A stretch of 53,383 nucleotides of DNA, from the sequence record PP107930.1, one strand, 5' to 3'. The number at the start of each line of letters is the position of its first letter. Position 1 is the stretch's first letter. A program made the translations under genes and the position numbers. Source of the DNA: Escherichia phage FXie-2024a. A model generated the notes under the pieces. That model searched no databases, had not been told where the DNA came from, and worked only from the letters and a program-made list of their open reading frames with translations. This document shows positions 27,365-53,181 of this stretch, piece after piece.

Positions 27365-28093
27365 TTATTTCTCTACTTGATGAGTTACGCGCTCAATCCA
27401 GTTGAACACTTTGAATACAGAATCACCCACTTTACCATCAATTAGATGTTCATCCACTGTTACGCGGGTAGGTGTGTTTGGGAGTTCGATGTATCTGCGA
27501 GAATCGCCCTTGAAATCATAACCATCACGATGCAAACGCACAATGATAACAAAATCATAAGCAGACTCAATGGCAACGACTTCATCGCCAAAACCGCCAT
27601 CGGGATAAATGACATTAACAACGCCACCCATACGCCCCGTGAGTTCTTTAACACGAGCCGCTTCAACTTGACCAAAATAGTCTTGTCCGTGGCGAGGCTT
27701 ACATACATCTTCGCTAACATGAATAAGAGCTTGACGAGGTGTTCTGCCACCAAGACCTGCAAGGGAGATAGAGTCTTTGAGGTCACGGTCCGAAGCATAG
27801 TGAATAAACTTGTCCACATCGACTTGGAAGTGTTTGGCAGTGTGCTCATACAGTGCATCCTTAAACTGGTGTTTAATGAATTTGCGTCTGCCAAGGAAGT
27901 AGGGTTCCTCAGCAGCAACAATCTTATTTGCAATGGTGTCTTTACCACAGCCAGGAGGTCCATTAAGAATTACAGCTAGTCGCTTAATCAAAACTTTCCT
28001 CACTCTTGTCTGCACGTAAACGAACGAGTGACGGGAACCGGAACTTTCCAGCTTCTGTTTTCTCGCGATAACGAACTTGCATAATCGAACCAA
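27365..28093 (-). CDS. P-loop kinase, dNMP kinase-like
   Basis: Walker A GPPGCGKDT; annotated start overlaps the ligase end, so the true start is probably internal. Confidence 0.45.
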   Translation of the reverse strand: MVRLCKFVIARKQKLESSGSRHSFVYVQTRVRKVLIKRLAVILNGPPGCGKDTIANKIVAAEEPYFLGRRKFIKHQFKDALYEHTAKHFQVDVDKFIHYASDRDLKDSISLAGLGGRTPRQALIHVSEDVCKPRHGQDYFGQVEAARVKELTGRMGGVVNVIYPDGGFGDEVVAIESAYDFVIIVRLHRDGYDFKGDSRRYIELPNTPTRVTVDEHLIDGKVGDSVFKVFNWIERVTHQVEK

Positions 28094-28739
28094 TCAGCTC
28101 GTGACGGTGTTCCCACAACCACTTGCGAATCAATGGGTTAGACTCAGGAATACCGTGGTCTGCCAGACAATCTTTCACCATTGAACCAGCACTGCCGTAG
28201 TTCGAGGAAATAGAACCACACATACCTTTAAGAGCACCAGTACCTTCTTTCATACCAGTAATCTTTACATCGGCGTATTTGTATGGTACAATTTTCCACC
28301 ATTTACCTTTTGCATCACGGACAATAATACCTTCATGACCAAGCGCCAGATATTTATCCATCAATGCCTTAAGGTTTTCATTGCTTGGGTCCTTGCACCA
28401 GCCGATGTACAGGCGTGGGTCAACAGCACCATCGCTCAACTCGTAAACATTTTCTTGCGATAGCGGTACGGTCGGAGGGTCGATACGCCCAAGGATAGAT
28501 GAAGTCTCGTTCCAGGAACCGCGAAAGATTTCTGCATCTTTAAATTCGAGATGGTCGCAGTGAGGGAGAGGTTTAGAGTTGCGGCTCCATACCTTACCAG
28601 AAGCATTACGAATCGCTCGTATGCCGTCAATTTTGATGTACAGTTCACATCGACCACGAATAAGACAGTCTGGGTCTTCCCAATCATGTGCGTGGGCCTT
28701 TGTGTAGCGTGTACCATCGTCGAGGAGCTTAATAGACAT
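27984..28739 (-). CDS. ATP-dependent DNA ligase
   Basis: 251 aa; adenylation motif KIDGIR (KxDGxR). Confidence 0.65.
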   Translation of the reverse strand: MSIKLLDDGTRYTKAHAHDWEDPDCLIRGRCELYIKIDGIRAIRNASGKVWSRNSKPLPHCDHLEFKDAEIFRGSWNETSSILGRIDPPTVPLSQENVYELSDGAVDPRLYIGWCKDPSNENLKALMDKYLALGHEGIIVRDAKGKWWKIVPYKYADVKITGMKEGTGALKGMCGSISSNYGSAGSMVKDCLADHGIPESNPLIRKWLWEHRHELIGSIMQVRYREKTEAGKFRFPSLVRLRADKSEESFD

Positions 28740-29253
28740 TAAGATTCTTTCTCAGATATTCTCGAACAGCATTCTTGCGTCCGATTTTGGTTTTAGGAAC
28801 TGGCTCTATTTTGGCAAGATTGCACTTGGCAATTTGCTCTTCGTCAGTTAGTTTGGCAAATGCAATACACTTCTTCTCAATGACTGCATCACGACGTGAC
28901 ACACCATATCGTTCCATGTATGTGATAATGCTGTGACAATCTTTACACAGCAGTTCCAAATCTTCTGGCTGAACCAATAGTAGGTTGTCCACAAAGCGGT
29001 GTAAATCTTCCAACTTAAGGAGGCCACCAACTTGAACTTTGTGGTTTACTTCAATATCTTTGAGCTTATACAACTTCTTGCAATGGTAACATTGAATGTG
29101 GAAGATTGGTTTCTTTGAGTCACCGACCTTCAATGCAATGCGACGAGATTGTATCAGCGAAAGTTTGCTTGGGTGTTTAGACCAAACACTTCGAATAGCA
29201 GATTGGAGCCAAGATACGAACTTGGCTTCCGTTCCACAATAACCGTAAGCCAT
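28729..29253 (-). CDS. HNH endonuclease
   Basis: 174 aa; CYHC...EVNHK...CKDCH pattern. Confidence 0.6.
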   Translation of the reverse strand: MAYGYCGTEAKFVSWLQSAIRSVWSKHPSKLSLIQSRRIALKVGDSKKPIFHIQCYHCKKLYKLKDIEVNHKVQVGGLLKLEDLHRFVDNLLLVQPEDLELLCKDCHSIITYMERYGVSRRDAVIEKKCIAFAKLTDEEQIAKCNLAKIEPVPKTKIGRKNAVREYLRKNLNVY

Positions 29254-29264
29254 TTCAACTCCAA

Positions 29265-30302
29265 TTATTTCTGGAGGTACTCTTCTTGAGTGAGGATACG
29301 ATTCTCTTTAAGGTCAAAGTATTCGTTAATGTTCTTGTAATGCCACAAGCGAACACAATTTCCCTTTTCAACTTGATGGTGCATGTAAACAAGACGACCC
29401 ACTTTGAGCAGCTCCTGTTCCCAACCATCTCCGAAGCGCATAATAAATGCACCAATAACTTTCTTCAAACCTTCTGCATAGGAGGTTGTACCATCCAGCA
29501 TCTCGAATGAAGCAACTGCACCAACGCCATCACGACGGAAATAAGTTTCTCCGGCTTTGGCACCAGTTTTGTAAATCTTTTCTTCAAGAACACCGCAACC
29601 CATAACGTTATCCGTTGAGTCGCCAATAAGCAATTGATGCAGGAAGAATTTGGGGCCATTGCCTTTAACTTCTTTCTTCTTCGTTTTGCCATTGTCCTTG
29701 ATTATTAATTTGAGTTCACCATAATCTTTAGGGATTATAATTTTCTCACCAATGCCCTGGGTTTCACGTTCCCATTGGTAATGCTTGATTACCGGACCAA
29801 CACAACCGTTCTGCCCGATTTGGCGCAAGTCTTTGTCCAACGATGCAATCCAGACTTCATCATATGTGCACGGACCAATACGAGTGAGGCTCTTAATCTC
29901 ATTACGTTTACCCATTGTCATGTCGTATTCATGACGTGCGAATACTGCGAGAAGGTCATCTGCTTCCAGACCTTTCATCCACACACCGTTCCAAGCAACC
30001 ATGAGATGTGCTTTCGCATTCTTCAAGTTCTCTGGTCGCCAAACATTATCACGGTTGCCTTTGTAGTCTTCGGCAAGAACGTTACGCAATGTTTTGGATG
30101 GTGAAATGCAGGTAATTACTTCTGTGGCTCCTGCACGTTTCGCAAGGAATTCCATCTTGGAATCCATTGACATTTGAATCTTAGCAAAGTTAATATCTTC
30201 TGCATCTTTGCCGTATTCTTCAGCAGCACAGTGACTGAATGCAACCATGTCGCCGTCAACCAGCAACAATACTCGTTTCTTACTCACTTTGGTAAGCTCC
30301 AA
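29265..30302 (-). CDS. 5'-3' exonuclease (FEN-like)
   Basis: 345 aa; LLLVDGDMVAFS and LEADDLLA acidic clusters typical of FEN/Pol I 5'-nuclease fold. Confidence 0.7.
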   Translation of the reverse strand: MELTKVSKKRVLLLVDGDMVAFSHCAAEEYGKDAEDINFAKIQMSMDSKMEFLAKRAGATEVITCISPSKTLRNVLAEDYKGNRDNVWRPENLKNAKAHLMVAWNGVWMKGLEADDLLAVFARHEYDMTMGKRNEIKSLTRIGPCTYDEVWIASLDKDLRQIGQNGCVGPVIKHYQWERETQGIGEKIIIPKDYGELKLIIKDNGKTKKKEVKGNGPKFFLHQLLIGDSTDNVMGCGVLEEKIYKTGAKAGETYFRRDGVGAVASFEMLDGTTSYAEGLKKVIGAFIMRFGDGWEQELLKVGRLVYMHHQVEKGNCVRLWHYKNINEYFDLKENRILTQEEYLQK

Positions 30303-30334: not shown

Positions 30335-31201
30335 TTAGAACGGCATACCCGTACCGCCAGCAGCACCACCTTCAGCTTCACGCTGTGCTTTCGCAGCAGC
30401 TTGTGCTTCCAGTTCAGCTTTCATGGCTGCATCAACTTCTTCATCAGAAGCCTGATTCGGTACAGCACCATCATCAGCAGGTTTGCCACCTAACAGAGCA
30501 GACAGCTTGGTCTTGTAGAAATCAACACCGGAAGTAATACGGTTCTTGATTGCATACGGAGATTCGCCACCAGGCAGCTTGTTGAATACTTCCAGGTCTG
30601 GCTCAGACATGTCGAAGAAGACAGTCGGGTTCACCAGAGCTTTAGCTTCTTTCTTCTCTTTGGACTTCATCGGAGAGAAGGTAGCAACCTTGTTCGCAAC
30701 CTGACCAGCATTCTTGCCGGACTGCTTGGTGTATTGAACAATGCCAACAACCAGAGGTTCGGTCAACCAATCTGGAAGGTTCTTGGCAGGATGGCCCTGA
30801 ATACCTTGTTCCAGGTTAGGTTTAACTTCCAGTGCATCAATCGCTTTAGCGAATTTGTAGATGTGGGAGTTGTCACCCATGAAGCCATCGGCATTGTAGG
30901 TAAACTCAAAGTCAAACCAGCGTGGCTTGTCTTCAAGATTCTTCGCCATCATGATGCCGTCATCTTCGTCTGGGTCTTGAACCATGACCATTTTACCTTC
31001 GCCATCAACTTCTTTCATATACTCATCGAGCAGCTCGAAAGTAACCAGAAGTTTCAGAGACGGGGTAGGATATTTAGCAGAACCAGGCTGTAAGCCCAGG
31101 TCGATAATACGGCAAACACGAGCAGGATAACCACCCGCTTCCAGTAATGGTGCAGCAGAAGGAGTCTTGTTCGAGGCCAGGGTAGGAGCAGCAAATGCCA
31201 T
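30335..31201 (-). CDS. Hypothetical protein, possible ssDNA-binding or annealing protein
   Basis: 288 aa; acidic Ala-rich C-terminus ending in F; sits between DNA polymerase and exonuclease. Confidence 0.3.
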   Translation of the reverse strand: MAFAAPTLASNKTPSAAPLLEAGGYPARVCRIIDLGLQPGSAKYPTPSLKLLVTFELLDEYMKEVDGEGKMVMVQDPDEDDGIMMAKNLEDKPRWFDFEFTYNADGFMGDNSHIYKFAKAIDALEVKPNLEQGIQGHPAKNLPDWLTEPLVVGIVQYTKQSGKNAGQVANKVATFSPMKSKEKKEAKALVNPTVFFDMSEPDLEVFNKLPGGESPYAIKNRITSGVDFYKTKLSALLGGKPADDGAVPNQASDEEVDAAMKAELEAQAAAKAQREAEGGAAGGTGMPF

Positions 31202-31229: not shown

Positions 31230-31502
31230 TTAATCGACTTGCAACATTGCAAGACGGAAGTCATATCCAACTAATGCTTCGGACAGCTCTTCAATTGAAG
31301 TTGTTGCCGAGATTAAAGTTTGGAGGTTTTTAAATGTCTCATCGTTAAATGCTTGAGACTGTGTGTCGGACGAATAGAATACTTTGTCCTTAATCTTTTC
31401 AAGGAACGCCATTACAGCGTCCTTTGCGAGAACTTCGGAATCGGTAGCAAACATATGGTGCTCTGATTCCTGCACATCAAAAATAGAATATACAGTTTGC
31501 AT
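31230..31502 (-). CDS. Hypothetical protein
   Basis: 90 aa ORF directly downstream of the DNA polymerase gene. Confidence 0.4.
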   Translation of the reverse strand: MQTVYSIFDVQESEHHMFATDSEVLAKDAVMAFLEKIKDKVFYSSDTQSQAFNDETFKNLQTLISATTSIEELSEALVGYDFRLAMLQVD

Positions 31503-33436
31503 TAGTGAATCTCTGCGTAGTTATCGCCAAATTGTACATCACATGCACAATCACGATTGAGTTTAAGTTCTTTGTTGGTCCGGTCCATTGCTTCATTAAG
31601 CAAGTCCGTCCACAAATCACGGAAACCTTTCTTAACTTGGAGAATCAATTCATCATGGAATTGTCCAGACAGAAGCGGGTCACAGCCCCAACGTTCATTA
31701 CAAATTGCGATAATGTTGTTACACCAAATATCAAACACATATGCACCAGTACCCTGACACAATGTGGAGAAGCGGTCTTTCTCTGTACGCAATGAATACC
31801 AGAATTTGTTTACTGGATTCTGTTGCCACATCTGACCATCAACTGTGATAACTTTAGTGTTAGCAGCAATTTCTTTGATGGACCAGTTCAAGTCCCAATA
31901 TGCTTTATGCAGTCGTGCAGCAGTGGCCTGGTCACAGTCAGCAGAACGGGCAACTGTTGGAATACCAGCACCATACTGACAAGCATAGTTTGTGGTCTTA
32001 AACATTGGACGTTGCTTACATTTCTGTATGCCGTCTTTGTGGTCCTGAGATTCTTTCTCTGTGATAAATCCACCGATTACGCCAATTGCAAGGTGGGCAT
32101 CATAGTCTGGTGCCAACTGCTTCTTAACATATTCAGGGTCATACATCCATTGGAAGTGGTGTTTACAACGGTCTTCCAAGGAACACAAGTCAGAACCTAA
32201 CTGTTCGTAGTCTTCGCGAAACGCTTCCAACATTGAACGCAGTTCTTCACCGCCAAATACACGAATAGAAGGGAGGTTAACAAGTTCGCGATGTTTAAGG
32301 CGTAAAGTATTGGTAAGGCCACCGCATCGTGCAGTAAGGTATCCGTCTTCATCGACGTCGCGAAGAAAACCATTAACAACAGAGAGACGGTGTTTATACA
32401 CGCCCATCCCAATAAGATGTTGAATACCAGATTCGGGGTTTCTTTCTGCCAACTTATGGAGGCTTGGACATATTTCAGGATTGCCATCTTCATCCTTAAC
32501 AGTGATTTGAGGAATCTGGCGAGTCTCACCTGTTTCCTTGTTGCGGTCGAACTTAAATGTTTCTGGCACCCAGCCTAAGCTGAACAACCAATCTTTAATC
32601 TGTACGTGAGAACCGGCGTTTGGTTCTTTATAACCCTTCAAGACTTTGATAGCTAAGTCTGGGTCTTTCCAGTCTAAACCGTTTGCATCACAAACAGCTT
32701 TCCACTTAATACCAGTGGAAGACAATTGTCCGTTTAGCTTGTGGCATTTAGCTGGACGGGTCTTGATTACATATTCAGGAATACGTGGCATTGATGCTTC
32801 CAATGCGTCCGTCTTCTCTTTAATCATTGGTTCCAGCTTGGCCTTAAATGCCAATGCCTTCTCGATGTTCAACTTCCAACGAGTACGTTGCTGAATAACC
32901 TGTTGGCGAGCTTTCGTCATCAAGTATTCAATGAAGCGTTTGACTTCAGATGGAGTCTTATAAATCTTGAGTAACTGGATGTACTGTTGTTCCCACAATT
33001 TGTGCTGAATCTTACAGTCTTCCAGTACACGATGGTTGTATTCTTCTTGTGTTTGGTTTTCCCAATCATCAATGACTGGTTTAGGCACACCAAACTCTTC
33101 ACCATAACCTTCAAGTCCATGCTTAACACGACGAGGTTGGAGATACCAACTGATAAATAGCGTATCAATCAGAGTACATTTTGAAACGTCATAACCAAGG
33201 AACTTCAATGCTTCAAAGTCAAAGGTTGCGCCGTTGTGCATGATTAGTGTTGGACCTGTGTCCAGAAAGTCTTGAATGGATTTTCGTTGCGTCCACTCAA
33301 TTACAGTTTCTTCACGAGTTTGAACATCAATGTATCCAATGTTGTGAAGACGTGGTGCAGCCTGTTTCTTCATCTGCTCCAACAAACCAGTTGTTTCAAT
33401 GTCACTGGCATACATATTTTCCCAAGGATACAACAC
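31502..33436 (-). CDS. DNA polymerase, family A, with 3'-5' exonuclease domain
   Basis: 644 aa; exo motif DIETTGL; motif B-like KTTNYACQYGAG; motif C-like QFHDELILQV. Confidence 0.75.
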   Translation of the reverse strand: MLYPWENMYASDIETTGLLEQMKKQAAPRLHNIGYIDVQTREETVIEWTQRKSIQDFLDTGPTLIMHNGATFDFEALKFLGYDVSKCTLIDTLFISWYLQPRRVKHGLEGYGEEFGVPKPVIDDWENQTQEEYNHRVLEDCKIQHKLWEQQYIQLLKIYKTPSEVKRFIEYLMTKARQQVIQQRTRWKLNIEKALAFKAKLEPMIKEKTDALEASMPRIPEYVIKTRPAKCHKLNGQLSSTGIKWKAVCDANGLDWKDPDLAIKVLKGYKEPNAGSHVQIKDWLFSLGWVPETFKFDRNKETGETRQIPQITVKDEDGNPEICPSLHKLAERNPESGIQHLIGMGVYKHRLSVVNGFLRDVDEDGYLTARCGGLTNTLRLKHRELVNLPSIRVFGGEELRSMLEAFREDYEQLGSDLCSLEDRCKHHFQWMYDPEYVKKQLAPDYDAHLAIGVIGGFITEKESQDHKDGIQKCKQRPMFKTTNYACQYGAGIPTVARSADCDQATAARLHKAYWDLNWSIKEIAANTKVITVDGQMWQQNPVNKFWYSLRTEKDRFSTLCQGTGAYVFDIWCNNIIAICNERWGCDPLLSGQFHDELILQVKKGFRDLWTDLLNEAMDRTNKELKLNRDCACDVQFGDNYAEIH

Positions 33437-33502: not shown

Positions 33503-35266
33503 TTATTGGTGTGGACCGTTCTTCTTAGTAAGTTGAACAATCTCTTTAGTTTCGAACAGCGAGTCTTCCCAAGAACGTTGAATGATTCGACCTGAGTCTG
33601 TGTCATAGTACGTCTTGAAGCCTTCTGTTTTACCACTCTTACGAGCTTTGATGGAACGAATAATAGAACAGTTTGGGTCTACTGCCTGACTATTACGTTC
33701 AAAGCCAAACATACCATGAGAATACTTAGCAGCAGCACGAGAGCCAGTAAAGTCTGACTTCTTGATACGTCCACCATCTTCATGAGGTCGCTGACCTTTT
33801 GCCACAGGGTTAAGGTGCGACAGAATATTAACGTGGAACTGGTACTGGTCTGCTAACTTTGTAATGTCTGCATACAGCTTACCTAAGAAGTCGTTCTTCT
33901 CTGAGGCAGAAATCCCTTCCGATAAGTAGGTTAAGTTATCAAGAACAAACATATCAATGTCTGGACCAATCTGACGAAGAATCGTCTTCAACCCATCCCA
34001 AGTTTCATAAGGGTCTTCTCCAGCTTGCTTGCGGTCCCAAATCTCCATGTTACGAAGCATCTTCGCAGCAGTTTGACGGAACTTCACTTCATCGTATCGA
34101 GGGTCTTCACGAGTAAACGCAGGTTCCCAATACGGCAAGTTGTCATTAAGGCCAGCCATACGGCGTAATGTTTCCGCAGGAGTTTCTTCCATGTATGCAG
34201 TAAACACTCCCCAATCATGCTGAATAATATTGTGATGCACAATCTGACGAGAAAGTGTAGTCTTACCACCACCTTCTGCACCACCGATTGAGATAACTTC
34301 GGCACGACGTTGACCAAACATTAAGTCGGTTAACTTAGTCCAGGGATAGTCCACACCCTGTTCAACTTCGTCATCAAGCTCTTCCATAAGAAGTTCTTTA
34401 TCGACAAGAGCTGTGGGCAGAGGTCGGGCAGCACGGAATACAACAGCAGATTGAGTAGCTTTAAGCAAGCCACGCTTCAGACAATCGTTGGCATCATTAG
34501 CTGGAAGAGTTGCAATCATTGCACCAGGCAACAATCGGCACGCTTCCTTAGCAGCTTTACGCCCAGGTTCATCATCATCAAATACGATAACAACCTGCTC
34601 CCAACGTTGCTTAATTTCTTCTGCAACTGGTGACAAACATTTGTGTACGGAATCGCTTCCATCACTCAAACTAATTACAGCAAAATCCAAATCTTCATAT
34701 GCACCACCACGGTTCATGGTCTTCAAGATTTGACGCAATGCGATACAGTCTTCTTCACCTTCTGTGATGAACAGTGTCTTACCGCCAATTGCTTTTGCGG
34801 CCATCCAGTTGTAAGGGTCGTTACCCTGGGTGTCGCCAACCGACCACATAACTTTCTTGTTCAGAAGTTTAATCTTCCAACGAACAAGTTTACCATTTTT
34901 GGTGTAGCCATGTGCCAGAGCATTTGGAGTCTTTCCATCATACTCTGAATACAGAAGTCGGACACCAGCAGCTTTCCAGAAATCTGGTTCAATACTGCGA
35001 TGGTCTAAATCAAACGGAGGACAAGCAGTGACTTCATCAATTTCTTCCTGAATTTCTTCTGGAGTTTTGACTTTAATCTCTGGAATGTTCTCCGGATTAT
35101 TGCCATAAGGATTTGGTACTAGAACGCCACATGCAAAGCAGTAACCAGAAAAGTTCTTATTACCAGCTTCATCGACATTCAACCAAACCTGTAAAGACTT
35201 GCCAGATGTGGATTTACAGTCTGGTACATCGTGCTTAATCTTAGCCACACATTGCTTGACGTTCAT
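33503..35266 (-). CDS. Primase-helicase (T7 gp4-like)
   Basis: 587 aa; N-terminal Cys-rich zinc-binding region; helicase Walker A GGAEGGGKTT. Confidence 0.75.
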   Translation of the reverse strand: MNVKQCVAKIKHDVPDCKSTSGKSLQVWLNVDEAGNKNFSGYCFACGVLVPNPYGNNPENIPEIKVKTPEEIQEEIDEVTACPPFDLDHRSIEPDFWKAAGVRLLYSEYDGKTPNALAHGYTKNGKLVRWKIKLLNKKVMWSVGDTQGNDPYNWMAAKAIGGKTLFITEGEEDCIALRQILKTMNRGGAYEDLDFAVISLSDGSDSVHKCLSPVAEEIKQRWEQVVIVFDDDEPGRKAAKEACRLLPGAMIATLPANDANDCLKRGLLKATQSAVVFRAARPLPTALVDKELLMEELDDEVEQGVDYPWTKLTDLMFGQRRAEVISIGGAEGGGKTTLSRQIVHHNIIQHDWGVFTAYMEETPAETLRRMAGLNDNLPYWEPAFTREDPRYDEVKFRQTAAKMLRNMEIWDRKQAGEDPYETWDGLKTILRQIGPDIDMFVLDNLTYLSEGISASEKNDFLGKLYADITKLADQYQFHVNILSHLNPVAKGQRPHEDGGRIKKSDFTGSRAAAKYSHGMFGFERNSQAVDPNCSIIRSIKARKSGKTEGFKTYYDTDSGRIIQRSWEDSLFETKEIVQLTKKNGPHQ

Positions 35267-39116: not shown

Positions 39117-39134
39117 TTTCACATCCAATTAATG
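39117..39134 (-). promoter_or_regulatory. Copy of recurrent 18-bp motif, about 76 nt upstream of the 38703..39041 gene
   Basis: Plus strand TTCACATCCAATTAATGT. Confidence 0.35.
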
Positions 39135-39164
39135 TGTCAGGACTGCTCTGATTTAACAAACAAC

Positions 39165-40666: not shown

Positions 40667-41310
40667 AGGAACTCTCCAATTTTCGATTCGGTGTTTGTGA
40701 CTTCTCTTCTCATCTTTTGGCCTATGAAACAGGCCACAGAGTAGCGCAGGAAGGCCGAAAATCGGACCACTGCCTACCGTTTGTGTCAATTCTGGATAAC
40801 TGCATTGGCGAAGGGTTACTCCCGTTAGGGTGCGACCCGCGCATCATAACTGCATAGCAGTCTGGCAAGCTGCGGAGGTCACAGAGGCTTTGCAACCCTT
40901 CCCAATACATTCACCCAACCTACCCGCTTTGGTATAGCTGGCGGCGCGGTTTTGTGCGGATTATGCCACTCTAAGCCCTGTTTGCCCGACTTCCTCGGAG
41001 CACCAGCAGCTTGTGGCACAAACCTATTTTCGAATGACTAACATAAGCATGAGGCACAACCCTCTAATTATTCAGCCCTAACAGCTTGCTTATTCAGTAC
41101 CAATTCATCCCAATACATCGCTATAACAAGTGAACAGCTTTCTGCGAAGAAGTATTCCGGCCCTTTGGCCTATGTTAAAAGTTAAATGTATGTGATGGAA
41201 ACATTCCATCGAAAAGAACTTTGTAGAACGAATCGAACGTTCTCACACGCCCTGGTACCAGACGGACTACCTAGTTACAAAGTTCTTATCTGATGTTGTT
41301 TCAATTCCAA

Positions 41311-41487
41311 CTAATGTCGAATGTCTTTCTTGCAAACAGGACAAGTGATAAATCTATATGCGAAATATCCTCGGTCATTCTTCCCTGTGTATATCTTTAA
41401 GTCTGAGAATTCATAAGACACAACAGAAGCACATAACCGACATTGGCGTGTGAAGGTTACTGTATCTTTTTCCAGAACTTTAATCAT
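41311..41487 (-). CDS. Zinc-ribbon protein
   Basis: 58 aa from MIKVLEKD; CRLC...CPVC; ribosome-binding GGAG lies inside the upstream 18-bp motif copy. Confidence 0.45.
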   Translation of the reverse strand: MIKVLEKDTVTFTRQCRLCASVVSYEFSDLKIYTGKNDRGYFAYRFITCPVCKKDIRH

Positions 41488-41713
41488 TTCATCTCCAATT
41501 AATGTTTCAGAATTATTCCAATATTCCAAATAAAAAGAATAATAAGAATAAATTAAATAAATGAAGAAAGTGCTTGACACCCATTTGGCGATAAGTGTAT
41601 AATGCCTTTCTTCCCTAAGAGGTCAGAATCAAATCCCACTAATGTTTCAGAATTACGCCGAAGGCCAATGCGAGCACAAAACCCGCTTGGCACTTCGACG
41701 GAACAGCTTGGAA

Positions 41714-41956
41714 CTATTCCAGAACCTTCCAGTCAGAGTCGAATAACTCCTTTGGTCGTGTGTAAATAGTAGAGGAATCAATACTCAAGAAAGTATGATT
41801 CCCATACTTCTTAACTTCCTGGTAAGCAAACCCATCTACCCAACTGCCGCAATGAGTTTTAATCTTTGTAGGCCCAAGAATACGATAGAAAGTGTTTCGA
41901 GGCTGGTGGTGGACAATCAATCCAGCCTCCAGCTCAGCAATATTTAAATCACGCAT
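41714..41956 (-). CDS. Hypothetical protein
   Basis: 80 aa early ORF. Confidence 0.4.
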   Translation of the reverse strand: MRDLNIAELEAGLIVHHQPRNTFYRILGPTKIKTHCGSWVDGFAYQEVKKYGNHTFLSIDSSTIYTRPKELFDSDWKVLE

Positions 41957-42566
41957 TTAAGAACAACACTCCTTCAGAGAAGATGTAGTCGCTGCCGAAG
42001 TCTTTTACAATTGCATCCCAATCAATGTACGGTGCAAGGCGGTCTGGAATATCCAGTGCTTCACTTTGCTTGAAGTAGTCTGCAATTGAGTCACAACGAG
42101 TAATGAACATGTCGTTCAAACTGTTCACAGTGAAAATATCAATTTCACCACTACGGAATGCAGCAAGAATTAAATCCAAGTCAGTGTCAACAAGTAGTTC
42201 ATTGAATTTATCATACTTGCGAATACTGAATAGGCCATTAGCAAAGCAAACTTCGGTAACATCTTCTTCGTTTGATTCAATTACGTCATGTGTACCGTCT
42301 TCTGGATAATCAATGCCGTATTCTTCATGCAAATACTCCCGCATGTCGAAATCATAGTGACGCCAAGACAGGCCATCAATCCACGCATCTACAAATTCAG
42401 AATTAGTTTCGCCTGTGTAGAAACGAACCAATAAGGTTTCATCTCTACGCCAGGACTTTAGCTGTTCTACTGCTTTAGTAATGTTATCGTTTTGCATTGA
42501 GTTTCTCCCACATACCTTGAAGTTCCGCATTAAGGATTTTGAGCTGTTCGATTCGCTCTTTTCCAC
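41949..42566 (-). CDS. Highly acidic protein (possible DNA mimic)
   Basis: 205 aa with dense Asp/Glu; early-region position. Confidence 0.4.
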   Translation of the reverse strand: MEKSESNSSKSLMRNFKVCGRNSMQNDNITKAVEQLKSWRRDETLLVRFYTGETNSEFVDAWIDGLSWRHYDFDMREYLHEEYGIDYPEDGTHDVIESNEEDVTEVCFANGLFSIRKYDKFNELLVDTDLDLILAAFRSGEIDIFTVNSLNDMFITRCDSIADYFKQSEALDIPDRLAPYIDWDAIVKDFGSDYIFSEGVLFLNA

Positions 42567-42782: not shown

Positions 42783-43199
42783 TTATGCTGGAAGTTCGAA
42801 GTGTGGCATATCAATCAGCTTCTTCTTACCTGGTGCGAGTGGTGGATACGGCTGATTTTCATCAATACGGCTCCAGTTTCCACCCCAACGAATGGTAATT
42901 CCAAGCTCTTTTGCAGCCTTGAACATGTGATGAGCTAAAACTTTGAATCGTTCGAGGTCATTCCAGTCAATTGGATATGGTGCAATGTCCAAAGCATTGC
43001 CTGACATGTGTCGGCTAACTGAAACTTTGGTTGCACCCTTCTTTAACAGCTCTTGCTGACGTTCATAGGAGCGTAAACCTTCAAGAACAGTTACATCAAA
43101 CGGCATTGTTTCACATGCACGCTTGAAAACCGCCACTAATGAAGGATTTACACCCTTTAATCTGTCAAGCGAGCGTTGGCCCAACTTAACATTAGACAT
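42783..43199 (-). CDS. Peptidase M15-like peptidoglycan peptidase
   Basis: 138 aa; VSRHMSGNALDIAP and C-terminal DMPHFEL resemble zinc D,D- or L,D-peptidase motifs. Confidence 0.55.
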   Translation of the reverse strand: MSNVKLGQRSLDRLKGVNPSLVAVFKRACETMPFDVTVLEGLRSYERQQELLKKGATKVSVSRHMSGNALDIAPYPIDWNDLERFKVLAHHMFKAAKELGITIRWGGNWSRIDENQPYPPLAPGKKKLIDMPHFELPA

Positions 43200-44250: not shown

Positions 44251-45168
44251 TTACAGCTTCTTAGTCAGTTCAGACGCTTTGCTGTAGGCAACTTCCATTT
44301 CGTCTCGCGTTACCTTAACAACTGTTGCCTTATCAACACGAAACGATGTTTTTGCTACGGCAATCTTGCCATCTTCTCCTGGCTCAAGCAGGATTGCTTC
44401 TAGCATTTGTTCCAGCTTTTGCAGAAGAATACGTTGTGCTTCGATTGCATTTTGAATATTTAATGTTTCCATTACTGCTTTTACCTTTCTCGAATAAGTT
44501 CCATATAATGTCAGGAGCACTTGCAAACCTTTTACACCATCATGGTCAATATTGACTTTATTGTATTTGGAGTACGGATGCTTGTACGTAGTTGTAACAG
44601 TTGCCCAATTGCCCTTATACCAAATAACATCACCAACTTCTACATCAGCACCTTTAACATCCTCTTCGTCTGAGAATGGTTTCACTGCTTCTTCATATGG
44701 AAGGAATGTTGGATTTATTTGAGTATCGAACTTCACTGTGGGAGTTTCCTGTGCTGGTGGCGTATTAACAATGTGGACTATGCGGTTGGGTGAAAAGTCA
44801 AAGTATCCTGTTACATGGGTTAATCGAACTACATTTTCAGGTATTTCCCCAAGGTCTTTAACTTCCTTTATCTCAAAGAATCTGATTCCGTAAGATAAGA
44901 TGTTTCCAGGTCGTACTTCATGCGCCAATACTGCACGGGTTGTGGTAGGCTTTGTAAAAGATTCTGTAGTGGGACGTTTTTCCAATACTCTGACTATACG
45001 GCCCAACTCAAAATTAAAGAATCCGCCAGAGTATTGTAGCTGAACTACATCACTAAGTCTGTTGATGTGTACAATCGGATACCCTCTACCATCATGAAAT
45101 ACAATGTCGCCAGTTTTAACCAAGTTGGCAGGTATTTCGACAACCTTATTGTCCATGATATTCCTCAC
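44251..45168 (-). CDS. Hypothetical protein with internal repeats
   Basis: 305 aa; repeated beta-hairpin-like segments (GDIVFHDGRGYPIVHI, NRIVHIV, GDVIWYKGNWATV). Confidence 0.45.
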   Translation of the reverse strand: MRNIMDNKVVEIPANLVKTGDIVFHDGRGYPIVHINRLSDVVQLQYSGGFFNFELGRIVRVLEKRPTTESFTKPTTTRAVLAHEVRPGNILSYGIRFFEIKEVKDLGEIPENVVRLTHVTGYFDFSPNRIVHIVNTPPAQETPTVKFDTQINPTFLPYEEAVKPFSDEEDVKGADVEVGDVIWYKGNWATVTTTYKHPYSKYNKVNIDHDGVKGLQVLLTLYGTYSRKVKAVMETLNIQNAIEAQRILLQKLEQMLEAILLEPGEDGKIAVAKTSFRVDKATVVKVTRDEMEVAYSKASELTKKL

Positions 45169-45277
45169 GCATTGCTGAACAGTGTTTGCATACCCAAATG
45201 GTTACATAATCGTTTTCGTGTGAAATTTCCCAATTATGTAGCCCTATAAAACATAAAATTTTCATAGGGCATCTCCA

Positions 45278-45655
45278 TTAAAACGGAATGTCGTCGTCGA
45301 AGTCTTTCGGCTCATTTGGGTTGTATGTAGAATTACCCTGGGATTGCTGAGCAGGAGCTTGCTGTTGCTGAGTTGGCTGCTGACGTGGCTGTTGCTGTTG
45401 AGCGGCAGCTTGAGGTTGAGCTTTGGCTTTAGCTTTCTCTTCACGCTTACGCATCATTTCGTCAACTTGTTCCTGAGTCATGATGGTGAGTGCCAACGAG
45501 GTAAATTCGGTGTTGCCAGCTTTCTTATTCCAGCCAGACACCCAATACCAGATACCTTCTACGTTAATGCGGCCACGAACGTCTGGATGATTTTCAGCTT
45601 TCTTAAAGCCATTGGAACCTAGAATACCAGTGTTTAAATCGTTAAATTGTGCCAT
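45278..45655 (-). CDS. Small SSB-like protein with E. coli SSB C-terminal tail
   Basis: 125 aa; Gln/Pro/Ala-rich linker and terminal DFDDDIPF, matching the last eight residues of E. coli SSB as recalled. Confidence 0.55.
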   Translation of the reverse strand: MAQFNDLNTGILGSNGFKKAENHPDVRGRINVEGIWYWVSGWNKKAGNTEFTSLALTIMTQEQVDEMMRKREEKAKAKAQPQAAAQQQQPRQQPTQQQQAPAQQSQGNSTYNPNEPKDFDDDIPF

Positions 45656-45729
45656 GATTAAATTCTCTTTAAGTTAATTACAGTTTAAGTTTCAGTGACA
45701 TTGCTAACCACGGAATAGCTTTGTCTCTC

Positions 45730-45747
45730 TTCAAATCCAACTAATGT
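45730..45747 (-). promoter_or_regulatory. Copy of recurrent 18-bp motif, about 75 nt upstream of the SSB-like gene
   Basis: Plus strand TTCAAATCCAACTAATGT. Confidence 0.35.
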
Positions 45748-45789
45748 TAGATTAATCATGGACACCTACAGAAGATGCCCATTGTTAAT

Positions 45790-46835: not shown

Positions 46836-47072
46836 TTATTTAACTTCTTCCCACACAAACAGGAATCCAACTACAGGCACATTTTCACCAATATTCCAAT
46901 ACGGACGGCCACGCCCATTGCTTCGCATTCGATTCCCACTATTGGTTATAGTAATGTATGGCTGTAATTCACCATTTACTTCAAGGTCAATCAAATCACC
47001 CTCAAGTTCATCTCCAACCTGAACTGATTTAGAACCTATTGGTGCTTTAATACAAACAAACTTCTTTGCCAT
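46836..47072 (-). CDS. Small paralogous protein A (78 aa)
   Basis: Shares PYWNIGE...VP...W.EEVK C-terminus with the 83-aa neighbour. Confidence 0.5.
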   Translation of the reverse strand: MAKKFVCIKAPIGSKSVQVGDELEGDLIDLEVNGELQPYITITNSGNRMRSNGRGRPYWNIGENVPVVGFLFVWEEVK

Positions 47073-47133: not shown

Positions 47134-47385
47134 TTATTTAACTTCTTCCCAGGTCCAAATACTACCTTTTAATGGGACTTTTTCGCCAATGTTCCAATAG
47201 GGTCTGCCATTGACAGCCATTCGGTTTCCAACATCCGAAATAATTATTCGAGTGTCGATTCCGTGTTTTCGCTGTATGTTGATAAGTTCTCCTTCAATCA
47301 CATCTCCAACTTTTGGAGTATGTTCGGATGAAGAGGTTGATTTCACACATTTAAACTTTGTCATTGCAATAAACCTTGTTCGCAA
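47134..47385 (-). CDS. Small paralogous protein B (83 aa)
   Basis: Paralog of 46836..47072 (KFKCV, VGNRMAVNGRPYWNIGEKVP, WTWEEVK). Confidence 0.5.
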   Translation of the reverse strand: MRTRFIAMTKFKCVKSTSSSEHTPKVGDVIEGELINIQRKHGIDTRIIISDVGNRMAVNGRPYWNIGEKVPLKGSIWTWEEVK

Positions 47386-47588
47386 ATGTCTGCAAACTCC
47401 GCACGATGGTCACGCTGCCATGTCCAGAATGCACCATTCATCGGAACGACAGCACCTTTACGGAATGCCGGAGAAATGCTTTCAGCAGATTTGGTTACTT
47501 TAAATTCCAAAGGCGAAATAGCTTCACCTTCAATGATTAAGCCAACTGGAACGTAGTCTTTGTTGGAAGCAACACATTTAAATTTCAT
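47361..47588 (-). CDS. Small paralogous protein C (75 aa)
   Basis: KFKCV start and W.W motif suggest a distant third paralog. Confidence 0.4.
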   Translation of the reverse strand: MKFKCVASNKDYVPVGLIIEGEAISPLEFKVTKSAESISPAFRKGAVVPMNGAFWTWQRDHRAEFADICEQGLLQ

Positions 47589-49779: not shown

Positions 49780-50650
49780 AATCTGTCACAGAATTTACAG
49801 AGATTTGGTCTTATTCACATGCAACTAATGATAAATGAACATGCTTAATTGCAACTAATTCATCTGCCAAATAGACGAATTTTGTCACAATCAAACATGC
49901 ATCATTAATTATAGGTTTACACCTATCTTGGAATGTATTTGGCACATCAAGAAGTGGCGCAATAGGTACGGAAAACCGACCATGTACAGCATAATAAAAC
50001 CAATTAAATAAAGGGTTTTATCCCAATATTGTCACAATATTTACATGCGATGATAAAGCCTTCGCTTGGCTGGAAGCCAGTATTCATGCGGGTTGCAAGA
50101 ATATTGGGTCATTGCTGATACAGCTATTACATGCGAAATTGGCACAAATACTGTTACAAAATTAACATGCCAGATTGGCAGACGATTGTATCTTCGAGGT
50201 GATTAGTCCTCTAACAATTCTGCCACATTCCAACATGCCAATTTGTAGCAATATTTACATGCCATACTGCGACGCAATTGTCACAATATTTGTTGCTCAA
50301 AATCGGGGCGGCTTCTGCGTGCAAACGAGAGGCTTAGTCCGACTTCTTCTCTTCTTTCGATTTCTGATTGAAAGAAAGAAGCATGTCCAAAAGTTCCAAT
50401 ATTACCAAAGTTATCTCCCGGCTTGTGGGTGGGCCTTTATAATAGGAGATGGAGCAATATTGTCGCAATTGAACATGCCATAGGTGAAGTACAAGTTTCG
50501 GATAGATATTCCTACTCTGTGTCATGGTTGCTGGAACTATAGGTGGCCTACCTAGGGAGTTCAATGATTGCCACATCATTACAACACTGTAACTCAAAGC
50601 TGACATGCTGAATGTTTCTAGAATGATTCAACATTACATGCGGAATATTT
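49780..50650. repeat. Iteron-like repeat cluster (candidate origin or promoter array)
   Basis: ORF-free ~0.9 kb with about 10 to 12 copies of a 18-19 bp motif near TTGTCACAATATTTACATGC (examples 49882..49900, 50029..50048, 50151..50170, 50221..50238, 50243..50262, 50460..50478). Confidence 0.55.
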
Positions 50651-50721
50651 CTCCGTATTCTTTTACTTCACATCCAACTAATGTAAGAGTTGTGTAACGA
50701 TATTGAAGACAGCTCTTAAAT

Positions 50722-51009: not shown

Positions 51010-52950
51010 TTATTGACAGAAGTAGTAAGCGTGTTCGCTCATCAGAAGCTCTTCAGTTACGATGTTCTCGTGATACATCTGAATGCCGCCAAGTTGCTTA
51101 GACAGATTCTCGAATTGATTGTTGGTTACAAAGATTTCAACATATGCTGCACGAATAACTTCCATCATACGTGGAGCATCAGCTAAGCAGCAACGGAAAC
51201 AATCATGGATTGAAGTGAAGCCACGAAGACCAGCTTCTTTAGCTTTAACTGCAACAGTACGAGCAACAAGTGCATCAATACCTTGAATGTAGTTAACAAC
51301 GAAGGTGCGTTTAAATTCTTCCTTAGTTGGATTGGATTCACGAATGGTCCAAGGCTTGTTCTCCTGAATCTGGCCAAAGATAACACGAGTTTGGCTGTCA
51401 ACACGGATGCTGAATGCCTCACAGATTTCACGAGATGGGAAGCAAGGCTTCATTACAACCTGACCATCAGTGTGACGATATGTGATGTACTCTTTGTTGA
51501 GTTCAACACAACGGTTGTATGCAGCATCAGCAGCTTTCTCGATGAACATGTTAATCTTAGCACCCAATGCGTTATGGATTGCTTCTACACACAGTTCAGC
51601 AAATGCCTCAGCTTTCTCCATAGGAATCTGGAGAGATGCAGTCATGTATGCAATGAAGTCAGAAGAACCAGTCAATGCAGCTTTACCACCACCGTATTGA
51701 ATAGCCATATACGGAGTTTTGATAAACTTACGACCAGCTTTCGGATTCAAGAATTCATCCATGATTTCAGGAGATGGTTTCATTGAAGAACGGTCGAGCA
51801 GCTTCAACAGTTCACGAAGACTCAACTGGTATGGGTCAGATGCTTTAGTCTCAGAATCAACCAGACCTGTTGCACGAGCCATTTCCATGTTACCAGCAAT
51901 GAATGCCAGATATTGAGTACCAGAACATTTAGCATCTAAACCAAAGCCTACACGAGAATCGCACTCACCTGTAGTCTCAAACTTGAACCAATCCAGAGCC
52001 AGACGAACATAAGTGAATGGCTTAGAAGGACGTTCAGATTTGTCCATGTTCATCATGCGAGCAAGTGAACCAGCTGGATTTGATGCAACATAAGTTAATC
52101 GCTTAGCAGAAGCCCATTCACCACCAGAAATATCTTCCAGCTCTGCCATGAACATGTTGTATGCAATGGTAGTAGAACCATCTTCGTTAAACTTCTTAAC
52201 GATGTTCTCAACATTGTGAGAATACAAGCAACGAGCAAAGTCAGATGATTGTGGGTTAGGACCAGCACATGCTACATGATACAGACGACCACGGTTATCA
52301 GCAAAGTAGTCAGAGTACAGTGTATCCTGAGTCATCATTGCTACAGCATTGTTCCAAACATGGAGTTCAGTCTGGATTGCTTCTGGCATCTGCAAGCCAC
52401 CATAAGTACGCTGCTCAATCATGGACTGGATGATGCGAACCATCTCAGTCTCCACATGGTACTCAGTATCTTGCAGGAATTCGATTGCAGCTTTCAGAGT
52501 CTTGGATGGCTTAACTTTGCCACCTTTAACGAAAGGCTTGCGACGAGATTCAGTGGTAACACGCTCAGTGAATGGCACTGAGGTATCTTTGGTTGTAACC
52601 AGCTCAACCCATGCATCAGTTTGTTGGAACGACTTATCTTCGTTCATGGTGATGAAGCCAAAGTGTTTAGCCAGACCAATCAGGTTGATAGCTGGGTCAA
52701 CATAGTGCATTGCTTTCAAATCGTTGTTATAACGGTTGGCATCAGCAATAGAAGCAGAAGCCAGTTCAACCATCGAGATGGCAGGTACAACATCGTCACG
52801 AGTGAAAGACGTCATCATCTTGAAGATGGCTAACGCAGCAATAGCACAAGTCTGAGGCTGCATATAGTTCTGTTTCTCTTTGGCACGGTATACCAGAGCA
52901 GTGATAGCAGGAACAACGGATTTGATAGTTTGAGTAGAGATAGTAGTCAT
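51010..52950 (-). CDS. Single-subunit DNA-dependent RNA polymerase, compact form
   Basis: 646 aa from MTTIST (GGAG ribosome-binding site). T7-RNAP-like motifs: DNRGRLY, motif A GLDAKCSG, motif B KTPYMAIQYGGGK, motif C SIHDCF. N-terminal domain much shorter than T7 RNAP. Confidence 0.8.
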   Translation of the reverse strand: MTTISTQTIKSVVPAITALVYRAKEKQNYMQPQTCAIAALAIFKMMTSFTRDDVVPAISMVELASASIADANRYNNDLKAMHYVDPAINLIGLAKHFGFITMNEDKSFQQTDAWVELVTTKDTSVPFTERVTTESRRKPFVKGGKVKPSKTLKAAIEFLQDTEYHVETEMVRIIQSMIEQRTYGGLQMPEAIQTELHVWNNAVAMMTQDTLYSDYFADNRGRLYHVACAGPNPQSSDFARCLYSHNVENIVKKFNEDGSTTIAYNMFMAELEDISGGEWASAKRLTYVASNPAGSLARMMNMDKSERPSKPFTYVRLALDWFKFETTGECDSRVGFGLDAKCSGTQYLAFIAGNMEMARATGLVDSETKASDPYQLSLRELLKLLDRSSMKPSPEIMDEFLNPKAGRKFIKTPYMAIQYGGGKAALTGSSDFIAYMTASLQIPMEKAEAFAELCVEAIHNALGAKINMFIEKAADAAYNRCVELNKEYITYRHTDGQVVMKPCFPSREICEAFSIRVDSQTRVIFGQIQENKPWTIRESNPTKEEFKRTFVVNYIQGIDALVARTVAVKAKEAGLRGFTSIHDCFRCCLADAPRMMEVIRAAYVEIFVTNNQFENLSKQLGGIQMYHENIVTEELLMSEHAYYFCQ

Positions 52951-53006
52951 TTGTAAGTCTCCAAGATTGTGTATGATTTGAATGAAACGGATTATAATAG
53001 CGTAGC

Positions 53007-53024
53007 CATTACACAATTCACGTC
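53007..53024 (-). promoter_or_regulatory. Copy of recurrent 18-bp motif, about 60 nt upstream of the RNA polymerase ATG
   Basis: Plus strand TTCACGTCCAACTAATAT; family consensus TTCACATCCAACTAATGT. Confidence 0.35.
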
Positions 53025-53181
53025 CAACTAATATCACAAACCTGTGCCATTGTTACAACAGCACGGAGACTTTGACCTTGACTCATAAGCGAAGCGCCTA
53101 ACTTGGTGTTGATTGAAAGCCGATAGGCTGTAGGAAAAAGTTGGGGTAGGGACCGTATTTTAAGTCCGATAGGACGTTGGG

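Follow-up and report, generated by a model that had tools for sequence, protein, structure and literature searches.

Escherichia phage FXie-2024a (sequence record PP107930.1) encodes a 125-amino-acid (aa) protein that is probably a small single-stranded DNA (ssDNA) binder, built without the oligonucleotide/oligosaccharide-binding (OB) fold of the bacterial single-stranded DNA-binding proteins (SSBs). We propose that it would work as a homodimer of PC4-like half-domains and present, at the end of a disordered linker, the tip of the Escherichia coli SSB. In E. coli, the partner proteins of the SSB dock on this C-terminal tip. The protein has relatives in many phages, and there is about an even chance that together they form a class of widespread 'mini-SSBs', in which a PC4-like half-domain of approximately 60 residues, as a dimer or in tandem, has replaced the OB fold and the linker and the tip have been kept.

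The gene lies on the minus strand of the window, by which we mean the whole stretch of 53,383 nucleotides that was analysed. An earlier note, made from the letters of the sequence, had delimited the open reading frame (ORF) and its 125-aa product exactly; the strand has to be added. The start codon ATG is at 45655-45653 and the stop codon TAA at 45280-45278, and the same interval read on the plus strand contains many stops. The assignment is based on the ORF list, the sequence, PHROG 7364, the annotated orthologues and 64 homologues. The product, MAQFNDLNTGILGSNGFKKAENHPDVRGRINVEGIWYWVSGWNKKAGNTEFTSLALTIMTQEQVDEMMRKREEKAKAKAQPQAAAQQQQPRQQPTQQQQAPAQQSQGNSTYNPNEPKDFDDDIPF, has a tripartite anatomy, and the features of the gene are the following:

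45278-45655, minus strand: coding sequence of the 125-aa protein, stop codon included
45476-45655, minus strand: conserved folded domain of four beta-strands, residues 1-60, the proposed ssDNA-binding PC4-like core
45419-45475, minus strand: amphipathic alpha-helix TQEQVDEMMRKREEKAKAK, residues 61-79, from the AlphaFold2 model, completing the beta4-alpha unit
45305-45418, minus strand: Gln/Pro/Ala-rich disordered linker, residues 80-117, with a predicted local distance difference test (pLDDT) score <50 and resembling the bacterial SSB linker
45281-45304, minus strand: C-terminal tip DFDDDIPF, residues 118-125, identical to the E. coli SSB tip
45662-45669, minus strand: purine-rich stretch AAAGAGAA, 6 nt upstream of the ATG, which reads as a probable, weak ribosome-binding site
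45731-45748, minus strand: 18-bp phage promoter motif AACATTAGTTGGATTTGA, 75 nt upstream of the start codon

The identity of the C-terminus with the E. coli SSB tail, pointed out in the earlier note, is borne out by alignments with PDB entries 1eqq and 7f2n, in which DFDDDIPF is the same in all residues. Among 27 aligned close homologues (alignment A1) the I-P-F is invariant and the Asp before it is more than 90% conserved; the tail is thus under selection and no chance match. In the Erwinia and Pantoea relatives the identity with the end of the E. coli SSB reaches 13 residues, NEPPMDFDDDIPF. The linker differs in both length and sequence among the homologues of the same alignment. A recent capture of the tail from a host ssb gene was considered and not retained: a blastn search of 5,426 E. 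coli genomes matched only the last 27 nt (25/27 identical, E = 5). These matches lie mostly in plasmid ssb genes and bear neither way on tail capture. The 125-aa gene itself was found in none of the 5,426 genomes.

That the gene should encode an SSB is not a new identification, because every relative already annotates it as such. The gene region is 84-90% identical to those of the Escherichia phages Bp7, EcoM1, Bp10, ST32, SA91KD and phiEcoM-GJ1, members of the genus Carltongylesvirus (phiEcoM-GJ1-like) of the Chaseviridae. The orthologues of phiEcoM-GJ1 (ABR68727.1) and ST32 (gp19) are both labelled 'single strand DNA binding protein', and that of SA91KD carries the same SSB annotation. No experimental test stands behind the label; the RefSeq entry of ST32 gp19 bears the note 'No experimental evidence', and the ST32 paper merely names gp19 in its list of replication genes. 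The 125-aa protein is a full-length member of PHROG 7364 (E 1.4e-39, 137 bits; the best of two matching stretches covers residues 1-89) and also matches PHROG 18154 (E 2e-16), and its distant relatives match both. Each of the two families is named 'single strand DNA binding protein', which is a database name, and an experimental characterisation of members of PHROG 7364 or 18154 was not found.

The label appears to have its origin at the C-terminal end of the protein. Pfam has no family for it and returned low-complexity sub-threshold matches only, and a PDB sequence search found only bacterial SSB tails. The NCBIfam SSB models PRK09010 (cut-off 260 bits) and TIGR00621 (cut-off 54 bits) align only through their C-terminal linker and tip, to residues 40-125, and score 24-27 bits. 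Since these searches see the linker or the tail at most, the SSB label derives from the linker and the tip and not from a recognisable DNA-binding domain, and homology to the classical SSBs was rejected. Two other candidates were also put aside. DUF736 (PF05284) does not match the 125-aa protein and is weakly matched by three of 94 family members (best E 0.0039); a distant relationship of the family to DUF736 is possible, and the four papers that name this domain apparently give no characterisation of it. A weak profile match to the Shiga toxin B subunit (E 0.14) was taken as chance.

The structure of the protein was predicted with AlphaFold2 as a single chain, using the 27-sequence alignment. 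The model contains strands at residues 10-14, 26-32, 35-46 and 49-58 and a helix at 61-79, the remainder being disordered. The pLDDT is >90 for about residues 11-60 and <50 over most of 85-112, a profile which agrees with the globular N-terminus and disordered Gln/Pro/Ala linker described in the earlier note. The 'minimal SSB' of that note, if understood as a shortened classical SSB, is not upheld by the prediction, which gives a sheet and a helix and no OB fold. Compared with the bacterial SSBs (E. coli Ssb; PF00436, TIGR00621), the protein therefore shares the three-part layout, with a disordered linker, an I-P-F tip and identical last eight residues, whereas the OB domain is replaced by a predicted four-stranded sheet and helix. 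As judged from the alignments, the N-terminal domain is the best-conserved part of the protein and under strong constraint: the 27 close homologues all have G10, N15, G28, W38, W42 and S53, and of these residues G10, G28 and W42 are kept without exception in 94 diverse members (alignment A2).

Beta-beta-beta-beta-alpha is the defining topology of the PC4-like ssDNA/RNA binders, which comprise PC4, the phage T5 protein 4bg7, YdbC, Pur-alpha and Whirly and act as intermolecular dimers or tandem repeats (PMC7549692). Residues 10-79 of the AlphaFold2 model have this topology (CATH 2.30.31). When the profile of the 94 members was compared by hhalign with the C-terminal domain of human PC4 (query sequence checked to be 1pcf), the hit had a probability of 75%, an E value of 2.6e-5 and a score of 28.7, as compared with a mean of 10.4 (sd 2.3) and a maximum of 18.3 for 300 shuffles of the PC4 sequence. 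A small PC4 profile, into which two phage members had been included and which is shallow, the search for PC4 homologues having yielded almost only vertebrate sequences, gave a score of 28.6 (E 3.6e-5) against a maximum of 23 in 150 column shuffles. The probabilities obtained with the PC4 sequence and profile ranged from 72 to 75%. One register recurs with the sequences of T5 4bg7, of Vibrio phage VspSw_1, a verified homologue of T5 4bg7, and of Rhizobium phage TM39. It places D25-x-R27-G28-R29 of the family on D76-F77-K78-G79-K80 of PC4, Y37-W38 on Y88-W89, and S53-L54 on S104-L105. In the crystal structure of PC4 with ssDNA a base stacks on W89, and two nucleotides lie between F77 and P98 (PMC7145681). 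Taken together, we consider it rather probable that the N-terminal domain has a PC4-like fold.

A number of observations weigh against this interpretation and have to be set beside it. The similarity to PC4 is remote, with none of the 94 family members matching Pfam PF02229 at E <0.01, and the family profile searched against the PDB sequences retrieved SSB tails and, beyond them, no PC4 match. The structural matches of the N-terminal model to PC4-like proteins speak for such a fold but are weak. The score obtained with the T5 sequence (18.9) is at the edge of its null distribution (maximum 18.8), and the profile comparisons with VspSw_1 and TM39 were not significant. The register puts the conserved 'V-x-G' inside strand beta-3 of PC4, at a position where AlphaFold2 has a hairpin turn; because the register and the predicted strand boundaries disagree there, the residue-level equivalences to PC4 are to be read as tentative. 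The helix at 61-79, which is likely the dimerisation element of the 125-aa protein, is kept in only part of the wider family, many members having 'PKD/PKE' in its place. As to function, the gene adjoins neither an annealase gene nor the replisome genes in this phage, its location among small early genes of unassigned function would also suit a host-takeover factor, and no experiments on family members are on record.

The family is large. A profile search of 1.84 billion cluster representatives detected 4,683 proteins at E <=0.001, of which 887 were at <=1e-10, counted as clusters at 50% identity. The best 147 representatives are mostly 80-150 aa long, and 105 of these 147 distant sequences end in an acidic-x-hydrophobic-P-F motif, DIPF being the commonest form. 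Members are present in Chaseviridae of Escherichia, Yersinia, Erwinia, Pantoea, Pectobacterium and Proteus, and also in Vibrio phage VpV262, several Acinetobacter phages, Salmonella phage PMBT28, Klebsiella phage VLCpiS6a and a Microcystis phage, those of cultured phages being labelled either SSB or hypothetical. Some members hold two tandem copies of the domain. This is the case in the Vibrio phages VP2, VP5 and phiVC8, and it fits the intramolecular-dimer form of the PC4-like folds.

Variants of the tip were also seen. In one environmental clade, from viral metagenome contigs, the tail is ...FDDLDF or ...FLDIDF and not DDIPF, and other relatives end in DDIPW or DDLPW. The variation of the tip across the relatives may track the SSB tips of different hosts.

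The genes found next to the family members outside the Chaseviridae are those expected around an SSB gene. Using the patterns of alignment A1 we recovered 80 viral loci, or 77 after dropping duplicate neighbourhoods, a recovery which is biased towards members with the YW-SGW and DIPF patterns. In 48 loci a same-strand gene of at least 150 aa lies within 30 nt upstream; these genes are mostly 170-250 aa long and often overlap the family gene by 3-7 nt. The non-redundant neighbours of this kind scanned in the non-Chaseviridae viral loci (n = 33) include 16 ERF genes, 9 genes for YqaJ-type exonucleases and 3 for Sak annealases. One distant member overlaps the stop codon of an ERF gene, and another comes after a gene matching an exonuclease PHROG. 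The tandem member of phiVC8 is flanked on one side by genes for a helicase and a Pam3-gp34-like protein and on the other by genes for an endonuclease, a DNA polymerase and a primase. A jackhmmer search with the OB domain of the E. coli SSB (seed verified as 1eqq) gave no match in the window, in the phiVC8 genome, in the fetched loci or in the flanks of the 80 viral loci. The genes of the family thus occupy the genomic slot in which a phage SSB is usually encoded. Annealases need the C-terminal tail of the SSB, their activity is raised by the cognate SSB, and operons of single-strand annealing proteins and SSBs are frequent (PMC12054835); in HK620, the last six residues of the SSB are required to load the Sak4 annealase (PMC5928155).

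Within phiVC8, a phage with a 2-aminoadenine (Z) genome, no SSB is annotated other than the tandem two-domain member (28677-29192, minus strand), whose upstream neighbour is a gene of the Pam3_Gp34 family (PF23977).

In the explanation that we favour, the sheet of four strands and its one helix, approximately 60 residues in all, would dimerise and bind ssDNA through a conserved surface of Trp, Arg and Lys residues, and the disordered linker, in the manner of bacterial SSBs, would present the exact E. coli tip DFDDDIPF. During infection the protein would coat the ssDNA arising from phage replication and recombination, and the tip would bring proteins with an SSB-tip pocket to this DNA. Candidate partners of the tip are the host proteins ExoI, RecQ, PriA and chi, the phage annealase in the temperate-type relatives, and the T7-like polymerase or helicase in the phage studied here. 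For members in temperate-type phages, annealase loading by the SSB tail as in HK620 may serve as a model. The binding of ssDNA, the dimerisation and the partners of the tip are what we infer from the fold, the tail and the neighbourhoods. The earlier note had left the choice between an SSB and a decoy; the conserved domain, the SSB-type gene neighbourhoods and the lack of an E. coli-type SSB nearby favour the first, with the amendments that the phage SSB is not of the OB type and is probably not the sole one.

The last of these points comes from the organisation of the genome. The 125-aa gene lies in a block of small genes between the RNA polymerase gene and the replication genes, and a second SSB-like gene is situated within the replication module:

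51010-53037, minus strand: RNA polymerase gene, at the high-coordinate end of the window
33503-35266, minus strand: primase-helicase
31502-33436, minus strand: DNA polymerase
30335-31201, minus strand: 288-aa OB-fold protein, the second SSB-like protein, between the DNA polymerase and exonuclease genes
29265-30302, minus strand: exonuclease
27984-28739, minus strand: ligase

The 288-aa protein, the ST32 orthologue of which (gp42) is annotated as hypothetical, had no match in Pfam and PDB sequence searches, and it matched the NCBIfam model 'phage replication initiation protein, NGO0469 family' below threshold (57.5 bits, cut-off 75). AlphaFold2 predicted a confident OB fold (mean pLDDT 89), and the best structural matches of the model are ssDNA-binding OB proteins. 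It has an acidic stretch near the C-terminus, upstream of the final ...GGTGMPF, the copy in the window ending in ...EAEGGAAGGTGMPF. The C-termini of its family are nearly always aromatic, with x-P-F in the Chaseviridae and strongly acidic tails, for example D/E-rich-P-Y or -W, in distant members. The protein thus resembles T7 gp2.5 in its OB fold and in its location among T7-like replisome genes, and the acidic tail with an aromatic end of gp2.5 is shared by the distant members of its family; a similarity at the sequence level is lacking (hhalign probability 0.3%). It is likely a replication SSB analogous to gp2.5, in which case the 125-aa protein may have a role other than that of the replicative SSB here. 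The 125-aa protein is probably not the only ssDNA-binding protein of the phage and would probably act alongside the 288-aa one. Both SSB-like proteins end in hydrophobic-P-F and may share a docking site. In the flanks fetched outside the Chaseviridae, which cover 5 kb only and are therefore weak evidence, the 288-aa family and the small protein were not found together.

An alternative is that the 125-aa protein is the sole replicative SSB, in the role of T7 gp2.5, with its tip docking on the T7-like DNA polymerase and primase-helicase of the phage and not on host proteins. Kong and Richardson are said to have reported in 1998 that the acidic tail of gp2.5, which ends in Phe, contacts the polymerase and the helicase and that the tail of the E. 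coli SSB can take its place. The 125-aa gene is the only gene annotated as SSB in the genus, a T7-like primase-helicase and a family-A polymerase are encoded by the phage, and the phiVC8 member adjoins polymerase and primase genes. However, the 288-aa protein with its well-predicted OB fold is the more obvious analogue of gp2.5, and the 125-aa gene lies 10 kb from the replisome genes, which makes the sole-SSB role unlikely.

We regard as still less probable that the protein is a pure decoy. Its folded domain would then not bind DNA and would serve for instance oligomerisation or solubility, while the tip would saturate the pockets of ExoI, RecQ, RecJ, PriA, Pol III chi, DnaG and Ung, so that host replication and repair would be shut down or the ssDNA ends of the phage shielded from SSB-stimulated nucleases. 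The identity of the tip with that of E. coli SSB, extending to 13 residues in the Erwinia and Pantoea relatives, is compatible with such a function, as is the position of the gene in a small early block near an anti-restriction gene and outside the replication module. The separate OB-fold protein could in addition meet the phage's own need for an SSB, and another coliphage protein with an FDDDIPF end has been proposed to interfere with ExoI (bioRxiv 10.64898/2026.04.29.721553). Against it, the N-terminal domain is the best-conserved part in a family of thousands of clusters, and its Trp, Arg and Lys residues align with DNA contacts of PC4; a conserved fold of 60 residues would be needless for a bare decoy. 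Moreover, translational coupling links the gene outside the genus with genes for annealases or exonucleases, or else it lies inside a replication module, and these neighbourhoods point to cooperation on ssDNA and not to host shut-off.

Finally, it is very improbable that the protein is a transcription cofactor which, as a PC4-like ssDNA binder, helps the phage single-subunit RNA polymerase or that of the host to open or use promoters, after the models of PC4 in eukaryotes and of the SSB and Drc proteins of N4-like phages: the PC4-like similarity, the T7-like RNA polymerase with its dedicated promoter motif and the ssDNA-binding transcription cofactors known from N4-related phages (PMC7145618) would agree with it, but the family occurs mostly in phages without an RNA polymerase of their own and beside recombination genes, and a transcriptional role is not known for the SSB tip.

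Returning to the non-OB ssDNA binder with an SSB tip, phage proteins with host SSB tips and PC4-like phage SSBs, such as that of T5, are already known; the combination of a PC4-like half-domain with a bacterial SSB linker and tip, and the size of the family, appear to be undescribed in the literature searched. The closest comparison for the domain is the PC4 homologue of T5 (4bg7), proposed to be the replicative/recombination SSB of that phage. It has a similar beta-beta-beta-beta-alpha unit of approximately 65-80 residues, the likeness at the profile level covers the region of PC4 strands 2-4 with the D-x-K/R-G and Y-W motifs, and both proteins are phage-encoded and tied to recombination or replication genes. 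The sequences of the T5 group (4bg7 residues 7-92 and full-length VspSw_1) differ in having no Gln-rich linker or x-P-F tip, VspSw_1 ending in ...QDEDE, and the similarity is remote and unseen by Pfam, with the helix gone in many members of the family. The SSB of HK620, the partner of Sak4, is like the family a phage ssDNA-binding protein encoded beside an annealase (PMC5928155), but it is a 21-kDa tetramer of another fold family, a distant homologue of the classical SSBs, and ends in NDYPPF. Bas52_0087, the trigger of DRT10, is a coliphage protein with a C-terminal FDDDIPF, proposed to disturb host ExoI and ssDNA metabolism (bioRxiv 10.64898/2026.04.29.721553); it is large (it has a residue 351), has two predicted OB folds and is not homologous to the 125-aa protein.

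Several consequences would follow. The annotation of the phiEcoM-GJ1-like phages can be corrected, in that their 'SSB' gene does not encode a classical SSB and a second, unannotated OB-fold candidate is present beside the polymerase gene. If the mini-SSB class is real, it would represent a second, independent SSB architecture able to connect with the SSB interactome of the host and with phage annealases, and a clean model for what the linker and the tip of an SSB do once they are separated from the OB tetramer. Annealases work better with a matched SSB in recombineering, and the family adjoins Erf, Sak and YqaJ genes; a natural ssDNA module of 80-125 residues with a host-type tip would, if confirmed, be a compact partner for tests of annealase recombineering. 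Phage SSB-like proteins also trigger the defence systems Retron-Eco8 and DRT10, and for this reason the structural distinctness of the family matters for predicting which phages trigger them.

As for the expression of the gene, the 18-bp motif AACATTAGTTGGATTTGA, which the earlier note had seen about 75 nt upstream, is located precisely 75 nt before the ATG. With up to three mismatches it occurs eight times in the window, always on the minus strand, against 0.11 copies expected:

31261-31278, 39119-39136, 41301-41318, 41489-41506, 41629-41646, 45731-45748, 49815-49832 and 50668-50685, minus strand: copies of AACATTAGTTGGATTTGA

The copies match the putative promoters for the phage RNA polymerase annotated in phiEcoM-GJ1. 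The site at 45731-45748 is the counterpart of 'putative phage promoter 3' of that phage, 73-92 nt upstream of the orthologue, and SA91KD has an equivalent annotated promoter. Scanning the surroundings of the gene for sigma-70 promoters and intrinsic terminators revealed nothing relevant on the coding strand. The gene follows the phage RNA polymerase gene at a distance of approximately 5 kb and comes before the replication genes. Because a phage-type promoter motif precedes it, it is probably transcribed by the phage polymerase and is not an immediate-early gene read by the host enzyme. The description 'early' in the earlier note is to be qualified accordingly. Three copies of AACATTAGTTGGATTTGA cluster within 350 bp, at 41.3-41.6 kb.

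All gene-like ORFs of at least 150 aa in the window (1-53383) are on the minus strand, and the window is therefore the reverse complement of the published orientation. It appears to represent practically a complete Carltongylesvirus genome, the relatives measuring 52-54 kb.

Other small ORFs surround the SSB-like gene. Just upstream of it, two ORFs at 46836-47072 and 47134-47385 (minus strand) encode tandem paralogues of 78 and 83 aa, which are 47% identical (E 4e-23), have GNRM..NGRPYWNIGE.VP..G..W.WEEVK in common and have no match in Pfam. A third ORF (47361-47588, minus strand) is, by eye, distantly similar to them. Directly downstream of the SSB-like gene, a 39-aa ORF (45146-45265, minus strand), MKILCFIGLHNWEISHENDYVTIWVCKHCSAMREEYHGQ, with a C-x2-C pair, runs 23 nt into the beginning of the next gene; in phiEcoM-GJ1 and SA91KD an equally long ORF is annotated at this position. 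A few kb further downstream, in the early/middle region and far from the structural genes, lie an endolysin-like gene (42783-43199, minus strand) and an anti-restriction gene (41949-42566, minus strand; phrog_14321); the endolysin call, of the L-Ala-D-Glu peptidase type, was made by position from the annotations of phiEcoM-GJ1 and SA91KD.

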